Sequence record: SRR31156797_3786
Reading direction: 5' to 3' (one strand)
DNA: 50,805 nucleotides
Shown here: positions 7,972 to 33,865 of the stretch, piece by piece
How the letters are laid out: every line of letters begins with the position of its first letter
How positions within the stretch are numbered: the first letter of the stretch is position 1
Translations under genes and position numbers: made by a program
Notes under the pieces: model-generated
The model's database searches: none
The model's input: only the letters and a program-made list of their open reading frames with translations
What the model was told of the DNA's origin: nothing

Positions 7972-9624
7972 ATGACAAAGATGATTACTATCGGTGATTA
8001 CCTTATCGAAAAATTGCACCAGGTTGGGGTTCGCCATATGTTTGGCATTCCCGGCGATTATGTACTCGGCTTTTACGATATGGTTGAAAAAAGTCCGGCC
8101 ATTGAAATAATCAACACCTCCGATGAACAAGGTGCAGGGTTTGCTGCAGATGCCTATGCACGTATAAGCGGTCTGGGTGCTGTTTGTGTTACTTACGGGG
8201 TAGGAGGGCTCAAGATTGCTAATACCACAGCCCAGGCATATGCTGAAAAATCTCCAGTGGTTGTTATCAGCGGCAGCCCAGGATTGGCGGAACGAGGCCG
8301 CCAGGGCCTTCTTCACCACCAGATAACAGACTTCAGTGCCCAAATTCGCGTATTTGAACAGTTCACCGTGTTCTCAACAGTTATCACCTCGCCCCAAACT
8401 GCGCAACGAGAGATAGACAGGGCCATAAGAACAGCTATAGAGTATAAGCGACCGGTATATATCGAACTGCCCAGGGATCTTGTATTTTCATCTTTTTTTC
8501 CGTATCGGGAAGAAGATATCACTGAAGAAACAAGTCTCCAGGAAGCTCTGAAAGAGTCGGTGGAGGAAGCAACAGCGCTCATCAACAAGGCAACAAAACC
8601 TGTTATCCTGGCAGGTGTTGAAATTCATCGCTTTGGCCTGCAGGAAACAGTGACGGGGCTGGCCCGGGAAAAGGGCATCCCCATTGCCGTTACCATGCTT
8701 GCCAAATCAGTCGTCCCCGACACTGAGGACTATTACCTTGGTGTATTTGAAGGCGGCAGAGAGGAAGTAACCCAATACGTTGAATCAAGTGACTGCCTGA
8801 TTATGCTGGGTACTTTTCTTACCGACCTCAACCTGGGCCTTTTCACCACCACCATTGATCCCAACAAGGCGATCCACGCCACCAGTGAGAAAATAGCCAT
8901 CCGTTACCATCGATACGAGAAGGTCGTCTTTACAGAATTTCTGTCTGCACTGCACCAGGCACCAATCACCCCCAGGACGATAGAGTCTCTACCAAAAGCA
9001 CAGGCACCCGAGCCTGTCCCCTATCCAGCACCGAAAAAGCCCATCACTGTGGCAACCCTGTTTCAGCACCTCAACGGCTTTATCCAGGAAGATACCATAG
9101 TCATTGCCGATGTAGGTGACGCCCTTTTTGGTGCCAACGATCTCTTTGTCCACAACGCCACCGATTTTCTTTCACCAGCCTACTACGCTTCGCTTGGTTT
9201 TGCGGTTCCGGGAGCACTGGGTGCACAACTTGCCAACCCGTATGCAAGACCCCTGGTTCTGGTGGGAGACGGAGCCTTTCAGATGACAGGGATGGAATTG
9301 TCTGCAATCGCCCGTTACAAGCTTAATCCCATTGTGGTGGTCCTTAATAACGACGGCTACAGTACGGAACGCCCCATGCTGGACGGTACTTTTAACGACG
9401 TCCACCCATGGGCATTCAGTAAAATACCAGATATACTTGGCTGCGGACAAGGTTTTGCAGTGCACACTGAGTATGAGCTGCAGCAGGCCCTGGAAAAGGC
9501 CCTGGCATATACCGATGGTTTTACCATTATCGATGTTAAAATAGACCGCGATGACCGCTCACCAGCCCTTGTTCGACTAACCAGCAAGCTCGCCGCCAGA
9601 GTAAAACCAGCAACTGCTCCCTGA
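7972..9624 (+). CDS. ThDP-dependent alpha-keto acid decarboxylase (indolepyruvate/pyruvate decarboxylase family)
   Basis: FGIPGDY, DEQGAGFAADAYAR, LLHH and ThDP motif GDGAFQMTG...NNDGY. Confidence 0.92.
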   Translation: MTKMITIGDYLIEKLHQVGVRHMFGIPGDYVLGFYDMVEKSPAIEIINTSDEQGAGFAADAYARISGLGAVCVTYGVGGLKIANTTAQAYAEKSPVVVISGSPGLAERGRQGLLHHQITDFSAQIRVFEQFTVFSTVITSPQTAQREIDRAIRTAIEYKRPVYIELPRDLVFSSFFPYREEDITEETSLQEALKESVEEATALINKATKPVILAGVEIHRFGLQETVTGLAREKGIPIAVTMLAKSVVPDTEDYYLGVFEGGREEVTQYVESSDCLIMLGTFLTDLNLGLFTTTIDPNKAIHATSEKIAIRYHRYEKVVFTEFLSALHQAPITPRTIESLPKAQAPEPVPYPAPKKPITVATLFQHLNGFIQEDTIVIADVGDALFGANDLFVHNATDFLSPAYYASLGFAVPGALGAQLANPYARPLVLVGDGAFQMTGMELSAIARYKLNPIVVVLNNDGYSTERPMLDGTFNDVHPWAFSKIPDILGCGQGFAVHTEYELQQALEKALAYTDGFTIIDVKIDRDDRSPALVRLTSKLAARVKPATAP

Positions 9625-9630
9625 TAAGCG

Positions 9631-10581
9631 ATGACTACTCGATCACAGGCCCTGTTTGCATCAGGTAAACTCCAGCAACGTGCCGAGCAGGCACATGAGC
9701 TCCTCAGTTGCTGCACCCTTTGTCCTCGGCAATGTAAAGTCAACCGACTCGAGGGTCAACTGGGCTTATGTCAAACCGGCGAGCATGCCCTTGTCGCAAG
9801 TTATGGTCCTCACTTCGGAGAAGAGCAGCCCCTGGTCGGGAGTAAAGGGTCTGGCACCATTTTTTTTGCCGGGTGCAGTCTCCTCTGCTGCTTTTGTCAA
9901 AACTTTGATATAAGCCATATAACCAAAGACAGCCAGCCAGTGGATGATCAAGGGCTTGCCGCCATCATGATCGAACTGCAGGAACAGGGTTGCCACAATA
10001 TCAACCTGGTCACTCCCTGTCATGTTGTCCCTCAGATTATGGGAGCACTTGTCCATGCATCAGCTAATGGGCTGCATATCCCCATTGTTTACAATTCCAG
10101 CGGGTACGATTCCCTTGAGACTGTGGCACTGCTGGACGGCGTGATTGACATCTATATGCCTGATTTCAAATTTTGGGATTCTGCAACAAGTAGTCGTTGG
10201 GCAAAAGCACCTGATTATCCTCAACGCGCCCGAGAGACAATACAGTCCATGTACCAACAGGTGGGCGACTTGCAGATAAATAAACAGGGGCTTGCAACCA
10301 CTGGGCTAATGGTGCGGCATCTGCTGATGCCGGGTAAAGAGAAGGAAACTGTAGACATACTTGCCTTTATCGCTCAGCACATCTCCCTCAATACCTATGT
10401 CAACATAATGGACCAGTATCACCCCTGCGGCAGCACAGCCCTCTTTCCCGAACTGCAGCACACTATAACCACAAAGCACTACCAGCAGGCCTTGGCTGCG
10501 GCACATTCCCAGGGACTGCACCGCCTGGACCAGCGTGATCTTTCAGACCTCATCAGAAATCTGATATTTCAGCAGAAATAA
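9631..10581 (+). CDS. Radical SAM protein, PflX-like
   Basis: CTLCPRQC, HFGEE, GSGTIFF, CSLLCCFCQN (CxxxCxxC), DIYMPDFK. Confidence 0.9.
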   Translation: MTTRSQALFASGKLQQRAEQAHELLSCCTLCPRQCKVNRLEGQLGLCQTGEHALVASYGPHFGEEQPLVGSKGSGTIFFAGCSLLCCFCQNFDISHITKDSQPVDDQGLAAIMIELQEQGCHNINLVTPCHVVPQIMGALVHASANGLHIPIVYNSSGYDSLETVALLDGVIDIYMPDFKFWDSATSSRWAKAPDYPQRARETIQSMYQQVGDLQINKQGLATTGLMVRHLLMPGKEKETVDILAFIAQHISLNTYVNIMDQYHPCGSTALFPELQHTITTKHYQQALAAAHSQGLHRLDQRDLSDLIRNLIFQQK

Positions 10582-10603
10582 GTATTTCCACATCAACCTT
10601 GTG

Positions 10604-10632
10604 TTGACAGCTGTCCCCCCATCTCGTATCAT
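10604..10632 (+). promoter_or_regulatory. Sigma70-type promoter of the leader/aminotransferase unit
   Basis: TTGACA-17 nt-TATCAT. Confidence 0.75.
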
Positions 10633-10682
10633 AATCTCTTTTAATTACGAGTTAATATTTTTACGGATTATAGATTATAAAA

Positions 10683-10757
10683 ATGCTCCCTAAATATTAC
10701 GCTGGGGCGGCGGCAGCCATGAACACGGTTCACTGGCATCCGACGGCTCCCTGGTAA
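10683..10757 (+). CDS. Putative attenuator leader peptide MLPKYYAGAAAAMNTVHWHPTAPW
   Basis: 24-codon ORF between the promoter and the terminator, with 5 Ala codons within 6 positions (10701-10718). No clear Shine-Dalgarno. Confidence 0.65.
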   Translation: MLPKYYAGAAAAMNTVHWHPTAPW

Positions 10758-10814
10758 CACCCACACAGCAGTCAAACGCCATTTGGACCATCTCTCCGGT
10801 CCATGGCGTCTTTC

Positions 10815-10847
10815 AAGCCTGGACCGAAACGGTTCAGGTTTTTTTTT
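10815..10847 (+). terminator. Intrinsic terminator in the 5' leader (attenuator)
   Basis: AAGCCTGGACCG-AAA-CGGTTCAGGTTT followed by a T run, about 75 nt upstream of the aminotransferase start. Confidence 0.85.
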
Positions 10848-10922
10848 GTTTTCATGAGCCTGACCCGAAGGATGCCTGAATGGCAGGATATCATCTACAA
10901 TCGTCTGGAAGGAGAATACACA

Positions 10923-12164
10923 ATGAGTGAAGAACGAAATTTCAAATTTGCTGATCGCATGGATCACCTGCCGCCCTATCTCTTTGGCATGATAAACAAA
11001 ATAAAGATGGAAAAACGATGGAAGGGTGAAGACGTCATCGATCTTGGCATGGGCAATCCAGTAGACCCCGCTCCCCAGCAAGTGACGGAAAAGCTCTGTA
11101 ATGTTGCCATGGATCCGAAAACCCACCGCTATCCTGCAGCTGGCGGGATGAAGAATCTCAAACGTGAAATCGCTTTGTATTACAAGCGAAATTATGATGT
11201 GGATCTCAATGGCGTGGATGATGTTATATGTACCATAGGCTCCAAAGAAGGTATCTCCCATCTCTGTCTTGCCCTGCTGGGACCTGGCGACACTGTACTG
11301 GTTCCGGCACCAGCCTTTCCCATCCATGTTTATGCCGCTGTTATTGCCGGTGCCAATGTACTCAGGATATCCTTAAACTCTGAAGAAGAGTCCCTGCAAC
11401 AGATCAGCACCATGTGTAAATCACTCTACCCCGGCCCCAAACTGGTGATGCTGAACTATCCGCATAACCCGACAGGCATCCTCGCCACCAAGGATTTTTT
11501 CAAAGAAATTGTTGTCCTTGCCAAAAAACACAATTTCATGGTTATCAATGATTTTGCCTACTCACGGATAACTTATGATGGCTACGTAGCACCGAGTTTT
11601 CTTGAGGTACCAGGAGCCCTTGATGTTGGGGTGGAATTCGGCTCCTTTTCCAAATCCTATAACATGGCCGGATGGCGGTTAGGATATTGCGTGGGCAACA
11701 AGGAGATGATAGACGGACTATCTAAGATAAAAGGTTATTATGACTATGGTATTTTTTCTGCCATCCAGATAGCAGGTATCGTGGCCATGCGAGACTGTGA
11801 TGATACCATCCAGGAACAAGCTACCCTTTACCAGAGCCGCAGGGACGTCATGTGTGAAGTCCTTATGCGGATGGGCTGGGATGTGGATATTCCCAAGGCA
11901 GGTATGTTTCTCTGGGTAAAAATCCCAGAGCCTTACGCGCAACTGGGCTCTATCCGCTTTGCTGTTGAAATGATGAACAGAGCAAATGTTGCAGTCGCCC
12001 CAGGAGCTGGTTTTGGTGAGGAAGGGGATGGTTATCTCCGCCTTGCATTGGTTGAAAATGAAAATCGTATCAGACAGGCACTCAAACAAATGAAGCGGGC
12101 ATTGACTGAAATTGACAAAGAAGTAGAAGCCGGTACTTTTCAGCTAGAGCAGGGCACAGAGTAG
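10923..12164 (+). CDS. Class I/II PLP aminotransferase, AlaC-like (glutamate-pyruvate transaminase; LL-DAP aminotransferase-related)
   Basis: RMDHLPPYLF, DLGMGNP, TIGSKEG, NYPHNPTG, DFAY, SFSKSYNMAGWRLG, PGAGFGEEGDGYLRLALVENENRIRQA. ATG at 10923 with AAGGAG RBS; the ORF-track start at 10803 runs through the terminator. Confidence 0.88.
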   Translation: MSEERNFKFADRMDHLPPYLFGMINKIKMEKRWKGEDVIDLGMGNPVDPAPQQVTEKLCNVAMDPKTHRYPAAGGMKNLKREIALYYKRNYDVDLNGVDDVICTIGSKEGISHLCLALLGPGDTVLVPAPAFPIHVYAAVIAGANVLRISLNSEEESLQQISTMCKSLYPGPKLVMLNYPHNPTGILATKDFFKEIVVLAKKHNFMVINDFAYSRITYDGYVAPSFLEVPGALDVGVEFGSFSKSYNMAGWRLGYCVGNKEMIDGLSKIKGYYDYGIFSAIQIAGIVAMRDCDDTIQEQATLYQSRRDVMCEVLMRMGWDVDIPKAGMFLWVKIPEPYAQLGSIRFAVEMMNRANVAVAPGAGFGEEGDGYLRLALVENENRIRQALKQMKRALTEIDKEVEAGTFQLEQGTE

Positions 12165-12205
12165 TATACTCCAGGTTTACGGCTACTTGAGGGGGGTAAC
12201 CGGCT

Positions 12206-13942
12206 ATGTGGAAAAACCAAGCTCTTTTCTTTGACGATGCTACCAGGAAATGGCTTCGTTTTTCCTCACCCCGGGAGGTGCTCGCAGCCCGCACAGTTGA
12301 TGAGGTTCTCCCCCTACTGGCAACCCTTGAGCAGCGGGTCGAAAAAGAAGGGTATGCTGCAGCAGGATGGATCAGTTACGAGGCTTCGCCAGCTTTTGAC
12401 GATGCATTGGTTGTCAACATCGACACCTCTGGTTTCCCACTCCTTTGGTTCGGCATTTATGATGGAGCTGTCCATGAACAGCAACCAAAGGAACGAAGTC
12501 TCCCTATCCTGTCTTGGGAACCGACAGTCAGCGATGATGAATATAAGCGCGCCATTGCGTACATTAAACAGCTGATAGCCAATGGCGACACGTATCAGGT
12601 AAATTATACCTTTCGCCAACACGCAAAACTCGATGCAGCTAATGCACAGAGCCTGCTTTCCATGCTCAACCAGCAACCACCCTACTTTGGTGGTTGTATT
12701 TCCACCCCTGAATGGTTTATCACCAGCGGCTCACCTGAACTTTTTTTCAGCCTGGACAGACAGCATATTGTCTCCCGCCCGATGAAGGGCACTGCTCCCC
12801 GGGGGGTTAACGGTGAAGCAGATGCACAGTTGGCGCAGCAGCTATATACTTCCGTAAAAAACCGGGCGGAAAATGTCATGATCACAGACATGGTGCGAAA
12901 TGACCTTAGCCGTATAGCTGCTAAAGGGTCAACCAGAGTTCCTGAAATGTTTGCCATCGAACAGTATCCAACCCTGTTTCAGATGACCACCACAGTAGAG
13001 GCAGAAACCCAGGCATCCTTTAAGGATATCTTGAAGGGATTATTTCCTCCGGCATCTATTACCGGAGCGCCCAAGGCCCGCACCATGGAAATAATCGCCC
13101 AACTAGAGACCACTCCCAGGCGAATCTATACGGGAACCATGGGTTTCCTCCTTCCAGGCAGGCGGGCACAGTTTAATGTCGCTATCCGAACCCTGCTCTA
13201 CAATCGACAACTGCAACAACTGGAATATGGGGTCGGCAGCGGGATTGTATGGGACTCTGACCCAGAGGAAGAGTTGCAGGAGTGCAGGACCAAAACCAGG
13301 ATATGTGATCCTCAACCTGCATCCTTTGAGCTGTTGGAAACCATGTATTGGAGCCAAAAAAAGCAATATACCCTCCTTGATGAACATTGCCGTCGTCTTA
13401 CCGCATCGGCACACTATTTTTGCTACCCTTTTGACAAACAAAAATTTGTACAAGGATTAACAGACTTGGCTGCAACATTGACAGACAGCCGTCGCAAAAT
13501 CCGTGTCACCCTGCAAAAAGACGGTAACGTGCAATACAAACACGAACCTCTCCCCCCTCCCAAAAAAGATCACGTTGTGACAGTTGCCTTGGCCCTGGAA
13601 CCAGTCGACAAAACTGACCGATTCCTTTACCACAAAACCACTAATAGAACTGTCTATGAACAGGCACGGGCAGCATGTCCCCAAGCGGATGATGTTCTGC
13701 TGTACAACCAGCAGGAGGAGCTTACCGAATCGACCATAGCCAATATCATCATGGAAATAGACGGTACCCTCTACACCCCACCCGTATTTTGCGGCCTCCT
13801 TCCCGGCACCGCCCGTGCTCGACTATTGGCAACAGGGCAAATCACTGAAAAGATCTTGCCCGTTTCACTGCTTGCAAAAGGATATCCGTTGTATCTGGTC
13901 AATTCTGTTCGTGGCAGATATCAGGCCATCATGATACAATAA
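12206..13942 (+). CDS. pabB: Aminodeoxychorismate synthase component I fused to an ADC-lyase/class IV aminotransferase domain
   Basis: GDTYQVNYT, SPELFF, RPMKGT, KNRAENVMITDMVRND, SITGAPK; C-terminal LLETM...HKTT...ESTIAN...GLLPGT. Confidence 0.9.
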   Translation: MWKNQALFFDDATRKWLRFSSPREVLAARTVDEVLPLLATLEQRVEKEGYAAAGWISYEASPAFDDALVVNIDTSGFPLLWFGIYDGAVHEQQPKERSLPILSWEPTVSDDEYKRAIAYIKQLIANGDTYQVNYTFRQHAKLDAANAQSLLSMLNQQPPYFGGCISTPEWFITSGSPELFFSLDRQHIVSRPMKGTAPRGVNGEADAQLAQQLYTSVKNRAENVMITDMVRNDLSRIAAKGSTRVPEMFAIEQYPTLFQMTTTVEAETQASFKDILKGLFPPASITGAPKARTMEIIAQLETTPRRIYTGTMGFLLPGRRAQFNVAIRTLLYNRQLQQLEYGVGSGIVWDSDPEEELQECRTKTRICDPQPASFELLETMYWSQKKQYTLLDEHCRRLTASAHYFCYPFDKQKFVQGLTDLAATLTDSRRKIRVTLQKDGNVQYKHEPLPPPKKDHVVTVALALEPVDKTDRFLYHKTTNRTVYEQARAACPQADDVLLYNQQEELTESTIANIIMEIDGTLYTPPVFCGLLPGTARARLLATGQITEKILPVSLLAKGYPLYLVNSVRGRYQAIMIQ

Positions 13943-32944: not shown

Positions 32945-33865
32945 TTAATCAGCCGGTTCAACATTTACTCCCAGAGCAGCAGGCTCATTGGTACGTCTAC
33001 GCCCCAATGACGACAAGACAAGGACAAAGACTGTCAATCCGTAGGGCAACATGAGCAGCAAAGAGGACGGCAACTGGGTGCCGGTTGCCTGCAACCTGAG
33101 CTGAAGCGCCATAATTCCGCCAAAAAGGTAGGCTCCAAACACAGCCCGCCCGGGACGCCAGAAGGCGAAAATAACAAGAGCCACCGCTATCCAGCCACGT
33201 CCGGCAGTCAGGTTATTGGTCCACAAATGGGTATAAGCCAGGGACAGGTAGGCCCCGCCAAGCCCCATAAAAAAACCACCACCAAGAATCCCCAGCCAAC
33301 GGTAGCCTCTGGCATTGAGACCAGCTGCCGCTGCTGCCTCTGGAAATTCACCAACAGCCCGTAATCCGAGTCCATAACGAGTATTGTTAAAAAATAGCCA
33401 CAGGCATGGAGGGATAATATAGGTGAGATAGACCAAAGGATCATGTTGAAAAAATATAGCTCCTATGACCGGAATGTCAGCAAGAATGGGCACCGGCATG
33501 GGATAAAATCCTGGAGCTGATAAACCGACATAAGATGTACCAAAATAATTGGCAAAACCAGTTCCTAAGATTGTCAGTGCCAGCCCGGAAACAACTTGGT
33601 TTCCCTGAAAAACAAGACACACAACGCCATGCAGGGAAGCTGTTGCTATTCCTGCAGCACCAGCTGCAACAAAAGCCAAAGAAGGACTGCCTGTATAGTG
33701 AGCCACCAGAAAAGCGCTCAAACCACCAACAATCATGATTCCTTCTACCCCCAGGTTCAAGACCCCGGACTTCTCGGTAATCATTTCGCCCAGAGTCGCA
33801 TACAGAATAGGGGTTCCGGCAACAATGGTTGCAGCCAAGAGAGGTATGATCATCTCGATGGTCAT
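32945..33865 (-). CDS. Nucleoside ABC transporter permease
   Basis: EKSGVLNLGVEG, GLRAVGE, AGRGWIAVALV. Confidence 0.92.
   Translation of the reverse strand: MTIEMIIPLLAATIVAGTPILYATLGEMITEKSGVLNLGVEGIMIVGGLSAFLVAHYTGSPSLAFVAAGAAGIATASLHGVVCLVFQGNQVVSGLALTILGTGFANYFGTSYVGLSAPGFYPMPVPILADIPVIGAIFFQHDPLVYLTYIIPPCLWLFFNNTRYGLGLRAVGEFPEAAAAAGLNARGYRWLGILGGGFFMGLGGAYLSLAYTHLWTNNLTAGRGWIAVALVIFAFWRPGRAVFGAYLFGGIMALQLRLQATGTQLPSSLLLMLPYGLTVFVLVLSSLGRRRTNEPAALGVNVEPAD

Follow-up and report, generated by a model that had tools for sequence, protein, structure and literature searches.

The 50.8-kb stretch of DNA analysed here (sequence record SRR31156797_3786; 'the window' denotes this whole stretch) carries the gene for P0001, an aminotransferase of the AlaC/YfdZ-like subgroup. 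The region ahead of this gene raises the question of how its expression is controlled and by which signal. An earlier note on the same DNA proposed that ribosomes stalling on alanine codons of a short leader peptide decide between read-through and termination of transcription upstream of the gene. This leader was examined by comparison with orthologous loci, by scoring of alternative RNA folds and by folding around ribosome footprints. As judged from the sequences, the element is probably a ribosome-mediated leader-peptide transcription attenuator with alanine (Ala) codons that controls the AlaC-like aminotransferase gene. The evidence also leans, with less assurance, towards a more specific reading, i.e. 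that this is the first ribosomal attenuator to be specific for alanine and to act directly and in cis, in which the Ala run reads the charging of tRNA-Ala and a five-helix relay silences two tandem terminators ahead of an alanine-forming aminotransferase.

Proposed mechanism of attenuation

In the proposed mechanism, transcription would begin at a promoter ahead of the leader (Table 1) and produce six consecutive segments (i.e. 0 to 5), each predicted to be able to pair with its neighbour. When the Ala codons are free of a ribosome, segment 1 would be held by segment 0, hairpins 2:3 and 4:5 would form and transcription would terminate before the gene. A ribosome that has reached the stop codon would cover segment 1, with the same two hairpins and the same termination as the outcome. 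In most relatives 2:3 would itself act as a terminator, giving two terminators in tandem. When charged tRNA-Ala is scarce, a ribosome would stall on the four to six GCN codons and cover segment 0, leaving segment 1 free. Helix 1:2 would then form first and release segment 3 to pair with segment 4; with 1:2 and 3:4 formed, neither terminator would fold and RNA polymerase would read into the aminotransferase gene. This scheme presupposes that the leader is translated and that stalling at the Ala codons is the signal, both of which are predicted from the sequence, and hairpin 0:1 may possibly be, in addition, a pause site at which polymerase and ribosome are brought into step.

Conservation of the alanine codons

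The comparative set comprised 80 retrieved orthologue loci of P0001 (identifiers beginning with L), mostly from Desulfobulbales. With scores of 63-162 bits, a covariance model built on the terminating fold (i.e. 0:1 + 2:3 + 4:5) identified the element in the window and in 36/80 loci, ~200 nucleotides (nt) ahead of the aminotransferase gene. The single model match in the remaining 44 loci scored 14.6 bits, and the reverse strand of the member loci reached a maximum of 23.6 bits.

All 37 leaders (i.e. the window and the 36 loci) contained four to six consecutive in-frame GCN codons, so that the conservation of the Ala run across orthologues, a check named beforehand in the earlier note, was borne out. 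Within these runs the G and C were invariant and the third base varied (G, 103; C, 32; A, 29; T, 8). Sixteen distinct Ala-run sequences were found when the 37 leaders were combined with seven additional distinct leaders obtained by genome searches. The alanine frame appears from this third-base variation to be the only frame that is conserved. An in-frame ATG was present in 35/37 leaders, with GTG in one (i.e. L020) and the frame of L010 broken by a TGA. The residues ahead of the Ala run varied by clade (MLPKYYAG, MKQHV, MKIYRLP and MYRLI, among others), with both the frame and the run kept.

The position of the stop codon separated the leaders into two classes. The short class ('..VH*'; L003-L008, L010, L011, L014, L017 and L079) has a UGA stop within segment 1; in the long class, to which the window belongs, the stop follows segment 1 by a few bases. 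As the stop falls either inside or just after segment 1, a terminating ribosome would be expected to cover this segment in either class. A sigma-70-type promoter with at least 9/12 matches to consensus, mostly of the form TTGACA-17-TATnnT, preceded the Ala run by 58-77 nt in 17/37 leaders.

Conservation of two mutually exclusive folds

Helix conservation was scored on a structure-blind MAFFT alignment (i.e. A1) of the 37 sequences. The antiterminating fold (1:2 + 3:4) was 95.9% paired as compared to 9-45% for slid-partner controls, and exhibited 41 double-change cells as compared to 15.5 +/- 4.5 in shuffles, a count that is not to be read as a probability as the sequences are kin to one another, the slid-partner controls being the more reliable guide. 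The terminating fold (2:3 + 4:5) was 96.5% paired, with slid-partner controls of 14-48%. Helices 1:2 and 3:4 use bases that are also needed by 2:3 and 4:5, i.e. the two folds are mutually exclusive. Compensatory pairs were observed in helix 1:2 (AU:18/GC:14 and AU:17/UA:15), of which an extended 18-pair version was 85.7% paired, and in helix 4:5 (UA:25/CG:11 and CG:27/UA:6), which was 96.1% paired. Helix 3:4 was 95% paired, with one pair occurring as AU:24/GC:8. One column of segment 4 covaries with its partners in both segment 3 and segment 5, and the segment 3 column of this set still pairs with segment 2 by means of a wobble. A column in each of segments 3 and 4 thus varies in concert with its partners in both competing helices; such double covariation would be expected under selection for both alternatives. 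Covarying stems, for which the earlier note had asked, were thus present in both folds.

Hairpin 0:1 was seen in the per-sequence folds and was 83.6% paired on a model-fitted alignment, which leans towards the structure of the model. No consensus 0:1 helix was obtained from RNAalifold on the MAFFT alignment, the rows of which show a loop offset between clades.

Folding energies were determined for the 221-nt leader of the window. The minimum-energy fold of -73.3 kcal/mol (z = -4.49) was equalled by none of 200 shuffles and contained hairpin 0:1, in which the Ala-codon stretch 10704-10724 pairs with 10728-10750. Duplex energies for the window were -28.0 (0:1), -16.3 (1:2), -20.1 (2:3), -19.5 (3:4) and -17.5 kcal/mol (4:5), as compared to -3.8 to -12.5 kcal/mol for same-parity control pairs of segments. 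Across the 37 sequences, each of the five adjacent pairs beat shuffled partners by >3 kcal/mol in 31-37 cases, whereas the same-parity control pairs did so in only 0-8. The presence of hairpin 0:1 and the complementarity of every neighbouring pair of segments indicate that the device is a six-segment, his-like chain, an arrangement shared with the his, thr and leu attenuators. The segment scheme of the earlier note held for 1:2, 2:3, 3:4 and the terminator, but had left out hairpin 0:1 and the first terminator, after 2:3, described below.

Tandem terminators

A hairpin was counted as a terminator when U made up at least 6 of the 8 bases that follow its stem. By this criterion 20/37 leaders have a U-run after both 2:3 and 4:5 (i.e. 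two terminators), 8/37 only after 2:3 and 8/37, including the window, only after 4:5; L079 has an offset U-run. Hairpin 2:3 is thereby a first terminator in 28/37 leaders, and at least one terminator is present in 36/37. The sequence after hairpin 2:3 of the window, GUCUUUCA, provides no usable U-run. The relay of 1:2 and 3:4 would, on this model, disable both terminators at once.

Folding with ribosome footprints

The consequences of ribosome position were examined by folding each leader with the footprint of a ribosome held unpaired, a treatment that describes equilibrium only and no kinetics. The probability of the window terminator was 1.00 in the free RNA, 0.04 and 0.13 with a ribosome at the first and second Ala codons of the run, respectively, and 1.00 with a ribosome at the stop codon. 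Among the 37 leaders, the terminator was at or above 0.5 with a ribosome at the stop codon in 28, and in 30 it was below 0.5 with a ribosome at the first Ala codon of the run. A reversed switch pattern was exhibited by none (0/37). At equilibrium, the footprint folds of the window thus support the logic set out in the earlier note, i.e. read-through upon stalling at Ala codons and termination once the stop codon is reached.

Anatomy of the leader in the window

The features of the leader are collected in Table 1. The promoter, the leader open reading frame (ORF) with its six regulatory codons, segments 1-3 (segment 1 being given as 10727-10748) and the terminator were all present where the earlier note had placed them. 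The promoter ranked first among 6 promoter-like sites in 9500-12500 (3.7 +/- 2.2 in shuffles) and would place the start of transcription near 10639-10640. The leader ORF is set in an A/U-rich 5' region. The terminator arm that pairs with segment 3, TGGACCG, was found at 10820-10826.

Table 1. Positions of the leader elements and the aminotransferase gene in the window
Feature	Position	Strand	Description
Promoter, sigma-70 type	10604-10632	+	TTGACA-17-TATCAT; 11/12 consensus positions
Promoter boxes	10604-10609; 10627-10632	+	TTGACA and TATCAT, 17-nt spacer; consensus scan
Leader ORF	10683-10757	+	24 codons, encodes MLPKYYAGAAAAMNTVHWHPTAPW; stop TAA at 10755-10757; from ORF listing
Regulatory codons	10701-10718	+	GCT GGG GCG GCG GCA GCC; uninterrupted Ala run at 10707-10718
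Segment 0	10704-10724	+	5' arm of hairpin 0:1, mostly Ala codons; in minimum-energy folds
Segment 1	10727-10750	+	Partner is segment 0 or segment 2; 3' end of leader ORF, just before stop codon
Segment 2	10767-10789	+	Partner is segment 1 (antiterminating state) or segment 3
Segment 3	10797-10809	+	Partner is segment 2, or segment 4 (antiterminator of the window's terminator)
Intrinsic terminator T2	10815-10847	+	Segment 4 ~10815-10826, loop 10827-10829, segment 5 10830-10841, T9 10839-10847; stem 10815-10841 of 12 pairs (6 GC) with loop of 3
Shine-Dalgarno sequence of the aminotransferase gene	10910-10915	+	AAGGAG
P0001 gene	10923-12164	+	Class I pyridoxal phosphate (PLP)-dependent aminotransferase, AlaC/YfdZ-like subgroup, 413 amino acids (aa); translation and family matches

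Runs of (GCN)4 occurred at only 2 places in the window, both strands being counted, with 3 overlapping matches as compared to 0.69 expected. The second place with at least four consecutive GCN triplets is at 33324-33337.

Function of the regulated aminotransferase

P0001 matched Pfam family PF00155 (class I/II PLP aminotransferases) over residues 37-387 with 192.1 bits against a threshold of 19.7. The best of the 68 NCBIfam families matched was NF006033 (alanine transaminase, AlaC/YfdZ-type) with 499.6 bits against a cut-off of 647. Models of LL-diaminopimelate (LL-DAP) aminotransferase ranked next, all under their cut-offs; TIGR03540 gave 441.6 against a cut-off of 593. P0001 is best described on these scores as AlaC-like and not as a certified equivalog. 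The closest solved structure, 2x5d (E = 7.9e-126), is that of an uncharacterised 'probable aminotransferase'.

Orthologues of P0001 scored ~147 against TIGR03542, for which the cut-off is 364.7. A separate true DapL was encoded in 3/3 related genomes by a different gene with 590-602 bits against this cut-off, and the P0001 orthologue in those three genomes was the best AlaC-type match (~500 bits; runner-up, 187). As a separate DapL exists, the best family match is of AlaC type and the leader is rich in Ala codons, the evidence favours glutamate:pyruvate transamination over LL-DAP synthesis, and the enzyme presumably makes alanine from pyruvate. The separate DapL of the three genomes lends support to the assignment of the gene by the earlier note as an alanine transaminase and not as DapL.

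Distribution and gene linkage

Genome-wide checks were made on related genomes reached via the orthologue loci. Five related genomes each contained one strong copy of the element. In the family to which the closest named relative belongs, 34/119 genomes carried it. Among 151 sampled genomes of the order there were 15 with a match at E <= 0.001, of which 8 were strong. Among 151 sampled genomes of the phylum the element was matched in the starting genome only, a result obtained with strict filters and by sampling that does not demonstrate absence. The element occurs in Desulfobulbales and in a few further Desulfobacterota, its carriers including cultured type strains of Desulfogranum or Desulfobulbus (L001, L013, L015, L030 and L033). 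All of the further strong matches that were examined (7/7) lay directly upstream of a P0001 orthologue. Flanking genes varied among the leader loci, the aminotransferase being the only constant partner; the element is linked exclusively to the P0001-type aminotransferase gene.

Weak matches in other genomes (25-41 bits) were considered as possible members and rejected, as all 8 of those examined in one set and one further match were ordinary or tandem terminators without an Ala ORF and without an aminotransferase downstream. The further match, a second one in its genome (L125; G345:C1:4371201-4371349, minus strand; 40.9 bits), consists of tandem intrinsic terminators upstream of a prfC-like GTPase gene and carries no Ala ORF.

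A different arrangement was observed at L075, a locus without the element. A short ORF (MAHIFNAAASP*) lies ~60-130 nt upstream of the aminotransferase start. The three Ala codons of this ORF overlap a hairpin in its 5' arm, and a U-run follows the hairpin. This ORF is not shared by the related locus L076 and may, from its sequence, be a simpler, independent alanine mini-attenuator.

Downstream of the aminotransferase gene, the window encodes a 578-aa fusion of chorismate-binding (PabB-like) and class IV aminotransferase (PabC-like) domains (12206-13942). The fusion gene starts 42 nt past the stop codon of the aminotransferase gene, and no terminator was called on the + strand in this interval. 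An operon with this pabB/pabC-fusion gene was considered as the general regulated unit and rejected, the fusion being a neighbour in only 2/36 leader loci; in several relatives the next gene downstream is on the opposite strand. Upstream of the leader (7972-10581), the window encodes a thiamine pyrophosphate (TPP)-dependent enzyme of 550 aa and an adjacent 316-aa protein without a Pfam match, which has a Cys-rich pattern that we take to be radical-SAM-like. This pair is kept in the nearest relatives (i.e. L001, L013 and L026). The Desulfobulbus-type loci have upstream a 560-aa TPP enzyme that is only ~26% identical to that of the window.

Alternative explanations

Several observations weigh against an alanine attenuator of this kind. 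The element was not detected by the covariance model in 44/80 orthologue loci. The leader ATG of the window is not preceded by a Shine-Dalgarno sequence, as the earlier note had also pointed out, and the same is true of the nearest relatives L001, L002 and L015. Two leaders are irregular: L010 (L010:2756-2800) has an in-frame TGA after the ATG and ahead of the Ala run, and L124 (L124:1490-1560) has a UAG immediately 3' of the Ala run, apparently through a 1-nt difference from its relatives. These irregularities could be decay, assembly errors or real variants. Part of the conservation of the Ala run is structural, because the GC-rich run also serves as a hairpin arm. In the equilibrium folds, the full expected switch, with both the stop-codon and the first-codon conditions, was exhibited by only 21/37 sequences, and a ribosome at the last Ala codon of the run left the window terminator at 0.84. 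Additionally, P0001 scores under every NCBIfam equivalog cut-off, so the substrate is not fixed by family match.

The dual role of the run could be read as a device that senses slowed translation in general (through antibiotics, starvation or lost coupling), with the GCN codons serving only as a GC-rich hairpin arm. The Ala run is indeed the 5' arm of hairpin 0:1, and the published upstream ORF (uORF) of whiB7 responds to many translation stresses (PMC10274678). However, a structural arm needs no strict three-base periodicity, and the run, in spite of its many distinct sequences, invariably shares the frame of the ATG. The regulated gene is moreover always an AlaC-like aminotransferase, such that the codon matches the product as in classical attenuators, and a general sensor of translation is considered unlikely. 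An untranslated RNA switch, be it a riboswitch or a leader that binds a protein or tRNA, would make the ORF and its Ala run structural by-products; this would accord with the missing Shine-Dalgarno sequence of the window and with the coincidence of the conserved part of the peptide, 'M..VH(W)', with paired RNA. Such a switch would not explain the retention of the ATG in 35/37 leaders despite diverged N-termini, the placement of stops at two structurally equivalent places or the strict GCN periodicity. No Rfam family was matched, riboswitches and T-boxes included, and no conserved unpaired pocket was found beyond the helices; this explanation is regarded as very unlikely.

A reversal of the logic was also considered, whereby alanine excess leads to read-through and the enzyme serves alanine catabolism, a stalled ribosome masking segment 1 rather than segment 0. 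Aminotransferases are reversible, and the high terminator probability with a ribosome at the last Ala codon is in keeping with this proposal. Stalls at the first and second codons have the opposite effect in the window (0.04 and 0.13), segment 1 begins at least 9 nt past the last codon of the run and the reversed pattern was absent from all 37 leaders, leaving this logic only a slight probability. Finally, the arrangement could be due to chance, with hairpins that terminate the upstream gene and a spurious ORF, as the window terminator lies 234 nt past the stop codon of that gene. The element, however, accompanies the aminotransferase whatever is upstream, the upstream gene being present in only 10/36 leader loci, and a strong promoter separates the upstream gene from the leader; a chance origin is scarcely credible.

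Relation to known attenuators

A leader-peptide attenuator tuned to alanine, the preferred interpretation, has its closest parallels in the classical leader attenuators, i.e. hisL, thrL and leuL, which are multi-helix chains, and trpL, represented in Rfam as His_leader, Thr_leader, Leu_leader and Trp_leader. As in these systems, a short leader ORF contains a run of codons for the end product, neighbouring helices exclude one another and a terminator stands at the end. A stalled ribosome would likewise free the antiterminating alternative, and a 5' hairpin with the regulatory codons would hold the next segment when the leader is untranslated. Unlike the classical attenuators, the window element would sense alanine and its target is a single aminotransferase gene rather than a pathway operon. 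Tandem terminators coupled by one helix relay, as predicted for 20/37 leaders, are a further difference, as are the Desulfobulbales hosts and the absence of sequence or model similarity to the Rfam leader families. To our knowledge, the published amino acids that are sensed by leader-peptide attenuation, among them Trp, His, Leu, Thr, Ile/Val and Phe, include no direct case of alanine.

A permissive scan of 10400-11100 against Rfam 15, which covers the His, Thr, Leu, Trp and Phe leaders, the T-box and riboswitches, gave no family at threshold, the best match being 22 bits as compared to a threshold of 50 and restricted to the terminator. A full-text literature search identified no alanine attenuator that acts directly on an aminotransferase gene, the only case found being the indirect "Ala leader" of whiB7. 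The element represents a new RNA family on a known principle, for which the amino acid sensed would be new and the relay would act on two terminators.

The whiB7 uORF of mycobacteria and other actinobacteria is described as an alanine-enriched attenuator ("Ala leader") in which uORF stalling switches between an antiterminator and a Rho-independent terminator and which responds to alanine starvation; it induces WhiB7, which raises the alanine aminotransferase AspC (PMC10274678). This work has been extended in a preprint (bioRxiv 10.1101/2025.10.10.681568). The two systems would be alike in that the outcome is more alanine aminotransferase. whiB7 differs in forming an indirect loop, from uORF to transcription factor to aspC, and its uORF is longer, of mixed composition and responsive to many stresses (PMC10274678), a description that sets it apart from the tight run of four to six Ala codons in the window element, which would act in cis and directly on the enzyme gene. 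The statement of the earlier note that no alanine attenuator has been characterised consequently needs to be narrowed, as the whiB7 uORF is alanine-tuned, although it acts via a transcription factor and not directly on the enzyme gene.

With this element, textbook leader-peptide attenuation would gain a direct alanine case. A conserved alanine attenuator would label an ambiguous aminotransferase as an enzyme of alanine synthesis rather than LL-DAP synthesis in poorly studied sulfate reducers. The natural variation among the leaders (i.e. two terminators, the first only or the second only) provides a comparison set for the evolution of the relay. For the organisms themselves, the element hints at a supply of alanine that is both limiting and regulated.

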